A stretch of DNA of 64,000 nucleotides from Anaerolineae bacterium (GTDB lineage: Bacteria > Chloroflexota > Anaerolineae > Fen-1058), in the NCBI GenBank assembly GCA_035283185.1, contig DATEUJ010000144.1, positions 17,185-81,184 on the forward strand, read 5' to 3'. The translations under genes and the position numbers were made by a program. The notes under the pieces are model-generated. The model did not search any database and was not told the DNA's origin. It saw only the letters and a list, made by a program, of their open reading frames with translations. Positions 8,836 to 10,236 of this stretch are shown one piece after another. Position 1 is the stretch's first letter. The number at the start of each line of letters is the position of its first letter.

Positions 8836-10236
8836 TTATTCGCCCGTCTTAATGGCCAGTTCCGCACCGATCGCCTTCGCTGCGCTCTTCACCGCCTCGC
8901 TCAGTGTCGGGTGGATGTGAATAGACTTGGCAATGGGTTCGGCCGTACCGTGGTTGTACATGGCCGTCACCACCTGATGGATCAGAATGTCGGCGTGCGC
9001 GCCGAGGATGTGCGCGCCCAGAATCTCGCCAGTCTTCCCATCGACGACGATTTTGACGAAGCCCTCCGTCTGGCCAATGGCCTTGGCTCGGCCGGTATGG
9101 GCGAATAGGTGCTTGCCAACCTTTACCTCGTGCCCGGCCTCGCGCGCCTCACGCTCGGTCAGACCCACGCTGGCCACTGCCGGTTCGGAGAATACCGCGC
9201 GCGGCACGACCCGATAGTCGATTTTCTTCTTCAGCCCACGCACGGCATTGAGTGCAGCAATCGGCCCGTCGTAGGTGGCTCGATGGGTGAACATTGCCCC
9301 GCCGTTCGCGTCGCCAATCGACCAGATGTTGGGCGCAGTGGTTAGCAGCGTATCGCCCACCCTGATGACTCCGCCCTCCAATTCCACACCAGCCTGATCC
9401 AAGCCAAGTTCGTCCACCCGGGACACGCGTCCACCAGCGAACAGGATGACGTCAGCTCTGAAGCGCCGCTCTTCGCCACCGATCTGTGCGACAACGACCT
9501 TCTCGCCTCCCTCGCGCTCAGCGCGTAAAACCGGCGCGCTCGTGTACAGGTCAGTCCCTTCGGCACGCAGCACCTCGGCCAGAGCGGCGGAAACTTCCTC
9601 GTCCTCGTGAGGCATGACGCGCCGTGCACGACCGAGCATCGTCACCTTCGTCCCGAACCGCGCATACATCTGCGCGAACTCTACGCCGATATAACCTGCG
9701 CCGATCACGATCATAGACGCCGGCAGCCGTTCCAACTTGAGCGCCTCATCGTTAGTGATGTACCCGACCTCCGCAAGGCCGGGAATGTCCACCGTCGCCG
9801 GGTGCGCTCCGACGGCCAATATCGTCTTCTCAGCCGTAATTTGTCGGCCATCCACGCGGATGTCCACGGGGGAAGTCAGTTCCGCATGGCCCGTGAAGAA
9901 GGTGATGTGCTTGTTCCTTCGGAGTGCAGTGTAAATGCCGTCGATGATACTTTTGACGATGGCGTCTTTGCGAGCGACGGCAGCCGCGAGGTCGAAGGTG
10001 ACGGCATCGGGGTTCACGCCGCGCACGCCGAACGCGTGCGCGCGGTGTTTGACCAGATGCATGACTTCGGCAGACCTTAACAAGGTCTTGGTGGGTATGC
10101 ACCCTTCGTTCACTCAGGTGCCGCCGACCTCGTGCATTTCGATCAACGCGACCTTCGCACCGAGGTTGGCGGCCATGTGGGCGGCGGGCAGTCCACCCTG
10201 CCCACCCCCGATGACGGCGATGTCGAATTTATCCAT
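8836..10236 (-). CDS. class I pyridine nucleotide-disulfide oxidoreductase (Lpd/glutathione-reductase-like) with in-frame TGA (putative Sec41) at the first redox Cys
   Basis: ATG at 10236 with GAGGAG RBS. Translation is [15 protein letters not shown]...EVGGT-TGA(10116..10114)-VNEGCIPTK. The canonical motif is GGTCxNxGCxPSK. The C-terminus has the HPTLSE His-Glu dyad, like Lpd/GR and unlike MerA. No C-terminal CC pair and no HMA domain. Confidence 0.7.
10072..10104 (-). promoter_or_regulatory. candidate SECIS hairpins downstream of TGA 10116..10114
   Basis: On the minus strand: GGGT-GCAT-ACCC starts 12 nt after the TGA, and AGACCTT-GTT-AAGGTCT starts 28 nt after it. Confidence 0.4.

Follow-up and report, generated by a model that had tools for sequence, protein, structure and literature searches.

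A predicted selenocysteine-containing class I flavoprotein disulfide reductase recurrently linked to mercury-resistance genes in Anaerolineae and other bacteria

The gene described here lies on the minus strand (8836..10236) of a 64,000-nucleotide stretch of contig DATEUJ010000144.1 from an Anaerolineae bacterium, called the window below, where it stands in a mercury-resistance (mer) island and encodes a flavoprotein disulfide reductase (FDR). It has 466 codons, from an ATG at 10236..10234 to a TAA at 8838..8836, and its sole in-frame interruption is a TGA at codon 41 (10116..10114), which comparison with homologs leads us to read as selenocysteine (Sec). The Shine-Dalgarno sequence GAGGAG (10245..10250, minus strand) lies 8 nt from the ATG, so the start and ribosome-binding site given in an earlier note, made from the letters of this DNA, are borne out. 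The TGA stands in the context EVGGT-TGA-VNEGCIPTK; it takes the place of the first (N-terminal, interchange) Cys of the FAD-proximal CxxxxC, and Sec41 is thus the first position of U-VNEG-C. All the hallmarks of a class I pyridine-nucleotide disulfide oxidoreductase are present, namely two Rossmann motifs (an FAD site, GGGQGG, at residues 9–14 and an NADPH site, GAGYIG, at residues 179–184, followed by LGRARR), the U41/C46 pair, and a dimerization domain with the dyad His442 and Glu447 in HIHPTLSE, which had already been recognized from its HPTLSE motif. Pfam matches to Pyr_redox_2 (PF07992), Pyr_redox (PF00070), and Pyr_redox_dim (PF02852) cover the full length, and Pfam finds no HMA or NmerA domain. 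The protein ends in ...AELAIKTGE, with neither a CC pair nor any C-terminal Cys or Sec.

Scanning GTDB genomes, one for each species, gave 80 related loci, and when their DNA was translated 53 of them had TGA at the codon-41 column. Their products are 54–87% identical to the window protein, and the motif is always VGG[T/A]-U-[V/I]NEGC[I/V]PTK, with CEPTK in one locus. These loci are annotated as Chloroflexota (Anaerolineae, Caldilineaceae, Ardenticatenaceae, and Promineifilaceae), Neomarinimicrobiota, Calditrichota, Gemmatimonadota, and Thermoanaerobaculia, five phyla in all. The assignment of a selenol to the interchange position of the CxxxxC center thus extends well beyond the window. Homologs of ≤45% identity in the same scan all have TGC or TGT at this column. 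When the protein databases were searched with a U41C query, 119 of the 120 best clusters were truncated at their N-terminus at or just after codon 41 (399–425 aa), which is the signature of gene callers halting at an in-frame UGA. The sole full-length cluster among these 120, P0031 (457 aa, 60% identity), is a Cys form, GGTCLNEGC, so Sec/Cys pairs do occur at this column, the Cys being found in P0031 and in the more distant relatives of the genome scan.

The sequence upstream of the UGA is also conserved. In the 36 codons examined there the GxGxxG glycines and a Q, a P, and an E are invariant and all of their synonymous codons are used, which indicates a translated sequence under purifying selection; the N-terminal 40 codons, conserved in frame across the five phyla, belong to the gene. 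TGA is the commonest stop codon in the window, closing 24 of its 42 long open reading frames (ORFs) including merA, so the genetic code has not been reassigned. Retention of the codon-41 TGA in 53 loci rules out a nonsense mutation or a pseudogene. Two separately recovered relatives with 44–45% identity, P0123 and P0124, begin right after the codon-41 column and appear to carry a stop there. The DNA of P0124 (locus L082, 2066–2068) reads GGT-TGA-ATG AAC GCG GGG TGC, that is GGT-U-MNAGC, and for P0123 the gene calls give a 43-aa FAD-binding fragment with a 422-aa remainder immediately after it. These stops would place Sec at the codon-41 position beyond the main clade as well. An ArsR-type helix-turn-helix (HTH) gene neighbors L082 and a multicopper oxidase gene lies on the P0123 contig; the sequences suggest that the 44–45% relatives represent further Sec clades in other metal contexts. 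Judged from these comparisons, the in-frame TGA is a conserved selenocysteine codon and the gene is predicted to be a genuine selenoprotein gene, and we infer that Sec is in fact inserted at this codon.

Shortly 3′ of the UGA, at 10055..10104 (minus strand), RNA folding and synonymous constraint define a putative bacterial Sec insertion sequence (SECIS) composed of a lower stem, GGGUGCAUAC/GUCAUGCAUCU, and an apical hairpin. The hairpin, AGACCUU-GUU-AAGGUCU (10088..10072), has 7 bp and lies about 25 nt past the UGA, and its loop begins with G at 32 nt past the UGA. Bacterial SECIS elements are modeled as carrying a G in an apical loop 16–37 nt from the UGA, and the stem-loop seen here, with its apical G, has that form. 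A putative SECIS element, whose prediction had been proposed as a check, is thus found downstream of the TGA, and a hairpin is conserved there across the loci. In a group A of about 33 loci (Anaerolineae and other Chloroflexota, Marinimicrobia, and Calditrichota) the 17-nt hairpin AAGACCUU-GUU-AAGGUCU is near-invariant, with occasional single-base changes, though the proteins differ by 13–35%. Synonymous entropy is depressed from codon +4 to +13 (GGG in 46/54, CCC in 49/54, AAG in 48/54, and ACC in 33/35), and rare codons that are barely used at the remaining Leu and Arg positions of the same alignment are fixed in the hairpin (UUG 38/45, UUA 32/44, and AGG 32/51). At this site the group B loci (about 55% identity) form other hairpins, such as AGCGC-UGUU-GCGCU and AGACCA-UGCUC-UGGUCU, and share the lower stem, with GGA (Gly)/CAU (His) covariation in three of four cases; RNAalifold, run on 22 group B sequences, recovered the lower stem alone because the register of their apical hairpins varies. 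In L082 the hairpin found at the same distance from the UGA is GGCCCU-GGUC-AGGGUC. Minimum free energy z-scores against dinucleotide or synonymous shuffles are weak, the medians against synonymous-codon shuffles being −1.5 for the Sec genes, −0.7 for the Cys homologs, and −0.5 for merA. Constraint at synonymous sites is thus stronger evidence for the SECIS element than are the energy statistics.

Other genes of these lineages carry similar in-frame TGA codons. TlpA/AhpC-TSA-like genes in the mer operons have one at the first Cys of their CxxC (FAFVG-U-PSC; L007:2107, L009:8202, L013:8598, and L056:7565), with a strong hairpin, GCGCGGGA-GGU-UCCCGCGC, beginning about 10 nt 3′ of the UGA, and judging by these features they are probably selenoprotein genes. 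At L026:2901 a TGA stands where a CcdA/DsbD-like membrane protein would have its second catalytic Cys (G-U-TGPIL), which may be an unlisted Sec form, and at L044:362 one takes the first Cys position in the metal-binding motif of an HMA domain (GMT-U-PTC). Chloroflexi are on record as containing selenoproteins (PMC1794560; PMC13326102).

The class of the enzyme was approached through models, alignments, and a tree. Among NCBIfam models TIGR01350 (lipoamide_DH) gives 438 bits, above its cut-off of 408.8. The models for the PRK06370.1-4 "FAD-containing oxidoreductase" (NF004992; 403 bits, cut-off 629), MerA (TIGR02053; 383, cut-off 454), glutathione reductase (GR; PRK06116.1; 320, cut-off 480), TGR (164, cut-off 476), and mycothione reductase all score below their cut-offs, and the specific dihydrolipoyl dehydrogenase (Lpd) subfamily models (PRK06292) are all far below theirs. 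A sequence search of the PDB gave Lpds at about 285 bits and the Lysinibacillus MerA at 275 bits. A fold search with a predicted model of the Cys form P0031 (pLDDT 78, active-site loop of low confidence) gave template-modeling (TM) scores of about 0.8 to both Lpd and MerA, and so does not discriminate between them. The dinucleotide site is more telling: LGRARRV aligns with MQRSERL of MerA (SEITLMQRSERLLK) and not with the acidic VTVVE motif of Lpd, which makes the enzyme NADPH-type. Hardly any gaps are needed to align the protein with the MerA core. Tyr102 and Tyr322 each stand opposite a MerA Tyr, which for Tyr102 is presumably Tyr264, and His442 aligns with a MerA Tyr that we take to be Tyr605. 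E44, R203, H318, H440, H442, T444, and E447 do not vary over 50 Sec sequences, of which 49 have Y322, 32 have Tyr102, and 12 have His in place of Tyr102; 76% of the sequences have no Cys beyond the active pair.

A neighbor-joining (NJ) tree of 208 sequences unites the 50 Sec forms in one monophyletic clade, within whose group A the Cys form P0031 is nested. P0125 (CINFGC) is sister to this Sec clade, followed by a clade of CLNRGC/PRK06370-like proteins, and the MerA sequences fall together in a separate clade with one other sequence. The placement proposed earlier among Lpd, GR, MerA, and NADH-oxidase families is thereby achieved in part, the Sec clade lying near the PRK06370-like proteins and apart from MerA in a tree that included no labeled Lpd references. 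Published criteria for MerA are Cys207/Cys212, Tyr264, Tyr605 (Phe in archaea), and the vicinal C-terminal pair Cys628/Cys629 (PMC8261052). In the Sec protein the equivalent of Cys212 is present and that of Cys207 is Sec, the Tyr605 column holds the His442 that is invariant in the 50 Sec sequences, and Cys628/629 have no counterpart; the lack of MerA hallmarks claimed in the earlier note (the Tyr-containing motif, the C-terminal CC pair, and the NmerA domain) is thus confirmed. Nor does the protein have the C-terminal GCUG/CC redox extension of the high-Mr thioredoxin reductases (TrxR). By its sequence it is therefore best described as an NADPH-type class I disulfide reductase that is neither a true Lpd nor a MerA; the NADPH-type site, a genomic context unlike that of Lpd genes, and specific Lpd models that score below threshold exclude Lpd proper. 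The same note's label "Lpd/GR-like" stands as regards the class I fold and the dyad, and is not to be taken as Lpd proper, the dinucleotide site being NADPH-type as in MerA. A distant homolog, P0222, has both a His-type dyad motif, YIHPTFSE, and a MerA-like C-terminus, ...ACCG, and is possibly an intermediate between the disulfide-reductase and MerA architectures. P0017, a 510-aa prediction from a 4135-nt JGI contig, matches the window protein with 100% identity along 71% of its length and includes an aldehyde dehydrogenase domain (PF00171) as well, which could reflect either chimeric assembly or strain variation.

Comparison with known enzymes is informative here. MerA (TIGR02053; Tn501, Bacillus RC607, PDB 5x1y) has the same class I FDR fold, NADPH-type site, and redox-pair positions, the Tyr residues of the Sec family line up with MerA Tyr residues and with the AAY motif, and the Sec gene, like merA, is found in mer operons, often at the operon end. 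The two differ in having Sec for Cys207 and His for Tyr605, so that the dyad is kept, and in that the Sec protein has no Cys628/629 and no NmerA. The nearest named Cys-containing relatives are the PRK06370-type proteins (NF004992, CLNRGC), which are 40–45% identical, have the same dyad and few Cys, and whose genes also adjoin MerR-family regulators and sometimes merA (L060, L066). They have Cys rather than Sec and Arg rather than Glu in the center (C-L-N-R-G-C versus U-V-N-E-G-C), and their function is uncharacterized, so they provide no mechanistic anchor. Lpd (TIGR01350) has the best HMM and PDB scores and shares the HxHPTLSE dyad motif and the THRA/AHKA motif, and differs in using NAD+ with a Glu after beta-2, in its Cys-Cys center, and in its E1/E2 or glycine-cleavage contexts. 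The closest catalogued bacterial Sec FDR is the Sec-containing CoA-disulfide reductase/NADH oxidase (TIGR03385, UGxP; Geobacter), in which Sec also replaces the FAD-adjacent redox Cys; its model gives 76 bits to the window protein, and it has no mer link. Enzymes of the TIGR03385 CoA-disulfide reductase type belong to another FDR class, with a single redox residue. The mammalian-type high-Mr TrxR is a class I FDR with Sec as a substrate-facing nucleophile that is exquisitely reactive with Hg(II); there the FAD-proximal center remains CVNVGC and the other subunit contributes the Sec, on a C-terminal GCUG extension, whereas the window enzyme has its Sec within the FAD-proximal center and no C-terminal redox extension.

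The earlier note called a selenoenzyme in a mer context unexpected. Several selenoproteins linked to mercury have in fact been catalogued, namely MerT-like (C/SxxU), HMA UxxC/UxxU (NF041115), MerB-like SaoL, and HgcA/HgcB proteins (PMC13188914). In these too Sec replaces a Cys that binds metals or organometals, and some of the types adjoin the Sec gene in related loci; this precedent makes the mercury context less paradoxical. None of them is a flavoprotein core, and the "putative mercuric reductase" of that catalogue is a UxxU metal-binding protein.

In the window the Sec gene ends the string of merR, merB-fusion, and Cys-rich-protein genes that had been described, and these neighbors are confirmed; all the features that follow are on the minus strand. 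Directly upstream (10331..10597) is an ORF for a small 88-aa Cys-rich protein, homologs of which were found by tblastn in 12 other loci, always directly upstream of the Sec gene and in an Anaerolineales subclade. It has 8 Cys and 2 His in the pattern CPxC-x9-HICPxxCC-x12-CPYC-x9-GHxC-LELIxLTEPAQ, with weak zinc-ribbon Pfam matches, and its vicinal CC pair resembles the MerA C-terminus. Next come a MerB (alkylmercury lyase) fused to DUF3237 (10682..11815; Pfam) and a 262-aa MerR-family ORF (11640..12428) with Pfam HTH/DNA-binding domains at residues 42–149. The latter has a low-complexity C-terminal tail of about 110 aa, which extends 176 nt past the merB start. The MerR homolog of L001 lies clear of merB, 99 nt upstream of it, and the overlap in the window may reflect a frameshift or a mis-called start. 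The MerR ORF lacks the classical three-Cys pattern of Hg-responsive MerR. Further upstream are a CcdA/DsbD-like membrane protein with the Cys motifs SPCAFPLLP and GMGCTGPILAG and no Pfam match (12900..13784), a heavy-metal-associated (HMA) domain protein (13781..14050; Pfam), a DUF7482 lipoprotein-like protein (14050..14631; Pfam), and an intact canonical merA with an NmerA HMA domain, CVNVGC, FPYLT, and C-terminal CC (14644..16389). At the far end of the window (63435–63867, minus strand) five tRNA genes (Ile-TAT, Phe, Leu, Arg, and Pro) include none for tRNA-Sec.

A merA 3′ remnant (~8830..8529), running to a ...SCCAG stop and frameshifted by a 22-nt deletion, directly follows the Sec-gene stop, as had been stated. 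Its identity with the intact merA is 85% in a 260-nt segment and 72% in one of 67 nt, which rules out a recent duplicate of that gene; what abuts the Sec gene is thus no copy of the intact merA, and is what remains of a second, diverged merA that formerly stood 3′ of the Sec gene, where L004 still has an intact one. The remnant is evidence, at the level of sequence comparison, that the island is a composite of two mer modules. Fragments of merA also occur near the Sec gene in L043, L007, and L009. Insertion with a target-site duplication was considered for the 12-nt ctaatcaaactc present at ~10350 and ~8765 and is rejected, as LELIKLTEPAQ is the conserved C-terminus of the Cys-rich protein and GLIKL is a merA motif, so the match is due to chance. 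The 94-nt spacer between the Cys-rich and Sec genes contains a highly stable, imperfect palindrome with three copies of GCTATCAGCCA (10256..10337; −54.5 kcal/mol, z −4.9). It is absent from the ~40–65-nt spacers of the closest loci, as judged by gene coordinates alone, and the JGI contig of locus L081 breaks within it. It could be a repetitive extragenic palindrome (REP)-like insertion, an mRNA-processing or stabilizing hairpin, or an attenuator.

The mer linkage noted in the window recurs across the family. Neighborhoods within ~6 kb were compared in 54 loci, many on short contigs, by local tblastn, clustering, and Pfam, and merA, merB, merT, or a merE-like gene lies near the Sec gene in 31 of them, or 39 if MerR is counted. 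The recurrent neighbors are MerR-family regulators (21 loci), CcdA/DsbD-like proteins (17), MerB (15, often directly upstream), MerE-like proteins (13), a CopZ-type zinc/[2Fe-2S] Cys-rich protein (13), TlpA/AhpC-TSA thioredoxin-like proteins (12), MerT (10), and CsoR-like regulators (7), with P-type ATPases, HMA proteins, and DUF302 also present. A canonical merA with NmerA lies near the Sec gene in the window and in 12 loci and, with one exception, shares its strand, in arrangements such as MerA-CysRich-SecFDR (L002, L005, and L030), CysRich-SecFDR-MerA (L004), and MerA-DsbD-TlpA-MerE-CsoR-SecFDR (L007 and L009). In L016 (8787–9320), L043, L056, and L007 the MerE-like two-helix protein (ACPCHLP) carries a C-terminal Trx/Grx-like CxxC domain; in the MerE-like gene of L009 this domain is cut off by a TAG.

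We favor, at close to even chances, a role as a dedicated accessory in the detoxification of mercury (a soft metal), namely an NADPH-dependent reductase for the operon's own Cys- and Sec-containing Hg(II)-handling proteins, working beside canonical MerA and not as Lpd. The protein would be a homodimer-type FAD enzyme with the FAD-proximal pair Sec41-Cys46 in place of Cys-Cys, its UGA41 being recoded through the SECIS hairpin within the 50 nt of coding sequence that follow. The two members of the pair have distinct tasks in GR, Lpd, and MerA, where the N-terminal one is the interchange residue and faces the substrate, and the C-terminal Cys forms the charge-transfer interaction with FAD. By this correspondence the Sec41 selenolate would be the exchanging nucleophile that faces the substrate cleft and meets the substrate, Cys46 the charge-transfer thiol, and His442′-Glu447′ the acid–base pair. 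Electrons would presumably flow from NADPH to FAD, to the Se–S bond, and on to the substrate, and the enzyme may thereby keep reduced, or strip and regenerate, the Cys/Sec sites of Hg(II)-handling partners; the small Cys-rich protein, the MerE-Trx-like fusion, and the CcdA-like, TlpA-like, MerT, and MerB proteins are candidates. An accessory role is suggested because the disulfide-exchange dyad, which is lost in MerA, is kept, because the gene is in the same operon as an intact merA in the clade closest to the window, and because the Trx-like domain with the CcdA-like and TlpA-like proteins would complete a relay of thiols from NADPH to the outside. Such a relay would be analogous to TrxB-TrxA-CcdA-ResA.

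Several observations weigh against this accessory role or the Sec reading beneath it. The chief weakness is chemical, as a pure disulfide reductase that uses Sec is expected to be poisoned under Hg stress, its selenol being titrated by Hg(II). Some 15 loci, mostly in group B, have no mer gene nearby and neighbors that look like housekeeping genes, and Marinimicrobial and some other operons combine merT and merB with the Sec gene, with no merA, CcdA-like, or TlpA-like gene over distances of up to 10 kb; these operons are better accounted for by an enzyme that reduces Hg(II) directly. The energy of the hairpin is unremarkable in individual sequences (median z −1.5, empirical p ~0.05). Finally, selA, selB, selD, and tRNA-Sec were not found in the 64-kb window, the fetched flanks, or 60 loci, so that Sec decoding in the source organism is something we infer.

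The main and a strong rival, less probable than the accessory role, is a direct role in mercury reduction. Sec41, whose affinity for Hg(II) far exceeds that of thiols, would take Hg(II) directly, from MerB, MerT/MerE, CcdA-like carriers, Cys-rich proteins, CopZ-like/HMA chaperones, or small thiols, and FADH− would reduce the Se–Hg–S complex to Hg(0). This would be a second, independently evolved Hg(II) reduction in which the selenol stands in for the C-terminal Cys pair and NmerA of MerA and would solve the ligand competition that MerA meets with that pair. It accords with the 11 of 15 merB loci whose available flanks show no canonical merA (flanks that reach 5.5 kb or more to either side in L001, L025, L031, L057, and L062) and with the place of the Sec gene in L012, L019, and L031, which is terminal and merA-like after merR-merT-merB. 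The merA relics that adjoin the Sec gene in the window and in L043 point the same way, as do the NADPH-type site, the near-gapless alignment with the MerA core, and Tyr102 and Tyr322 opposite MerA Tyr residues. Of the 51 clade members 50 keep Sec, Cys is missing outside the active pair in 76%, and Sec replaces metal-binding Cys in the neighboring HMA, CcdA-like, and TlpA-like proteins. About half of the genomes with MerB have no MerA, Gemmatimonadetes are listed as MerB+ and MerA−, and a non-canonical MerA-like Synechocystis flavoprotein is cited there as reducing Hg(II) (PMC8261052). Against it, the Tyr605 column is His, Cys628/629 are absent, and the retained His–Glu dyad is typical of disulfide exchange. 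An intact merA co-occurs with the Sec gene in 12 loci and the window, merA may lie elsewhere in the genomes scored as lacking it, and the stronger Hg–Se bond should make reduction thermodynamically harder.

It is unlikely that the enzyme is instead a reductase of a low-molecular-weight disulfide, persulfide, or selenotrisulfide, an analog of GR or mycothione reductase that would restore an Hg(II)-buffering thiol pool. The GR/mycothione reductase-like architecture, the NADPH-type site, and the His–Glu dyad would all suit such a function, and the mer operons of Thermus include thiol-biosynthesis genes. No such genes are recurrent beside the Sec gene, however, the GR and mycothione reductase models score below cut-off, and the five phyla that the mer-linked gene spans are unlikely to share one specialized thiol.

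Still less probable is an Lpd, the E3 of 2-oxoacid dehydrogenase or glycine-cleavage complexes, that merely happens to be located in the island. The TIGR01350 score above cut-off and the Lpds that head the PDB sequence and fold matches would be explained by this, but the NADPH-type site lacks the Lpd Glu and has an invariant R203, and the specific subfamily models all fall short of their cut-offs. No E1, E2, or glycine-cleavage gene was recognized among the recurrent or sampled neighbors, group B singletons being partly annotated, and the NJ tree, which had no labeled Lpd references, groups the Sec protein with the PRK06370-like proteins. A pseudogene, a sequencing error, or a true start at GTG 10113 past the TGA with the N-terminal 40 codons not co-translated, as might be suggested by public gene calls that begin after the TGA and by decayed genes in the island such as the merA remnant, is effectively refuted: translation from 10113 would yield a protein without the FAD-binding GxGxxG and with half of the redox center missing, the TGA, the in-frame coding conservation upstream of it, and the hairpin downstream are kept in 53 loci, and the same TGA is present in a second assembly, the 7-kb JGI contig L081, which is 100% identical over 4456 nt and possibly derived from the same reads.

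The May 2026 review table of prokaryotic selenoproteins contains no class I (Lpd/GR/MerA-type) reductase, the nearest entries being the single-Cys CoA-disulfide reductase type (UGxP), a type III sulfide:quinone reductase, and the HMA-type "putative mercuric reductase" (UxxU) (PMC13188914). Nor did the few terms checked in the table of a 2022 review retrieve one, and the main texts of the deep-Sep and BSepDB papers make no mention of one. Literature searches likewise turned up no account of the family. NCBIfam release 20 has no dedicated model for the Sec family, and the truncated products bear the public names "dihydrolipoyl dehydrogenase family protein" or "FAD-containing oxidoreductase". By these comparisons we consider it a new, previously uncatalogued predicted selenoprotein family within a known enzyme superfamily, recurrently linked to mer genes. 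To our knowledge it is the first class I FDR with Sec inside the FAD-proximal redox center and not on a C-terminal arm, and its Sec–Cys center would be a natural experiment on Se–S versus S–S charge-transfer chemistry.

The family is widespread, in at least 53 species-level genomes of five phyla, and systematically truncated by gene callers. The mer operons of Anaerolineae and other uncultured lineages would be built around a thiol/selenol relay of TlpA-like, CcdA-like, MerE-Trx-like, and Cys-rich proteins together with the Sec reductase, with Sec at several of the relay steps. How the roughly half of MerB-encoding genomes that have no MerA cope is an open puzzle (PMC8261052), for which this family is a testable candidate, and it may explain Hg handling without classical MerA. 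If the enzyme is indeed a mercuric reductase, it would be the missing Hg(II) partner in part of these genomes (Marinimicrobia, Gemmatimonadota, and some Anaerolineae). Surveys of mercury cycling that screen for canonical MerA signatures would overlook the Sec gene entirely.

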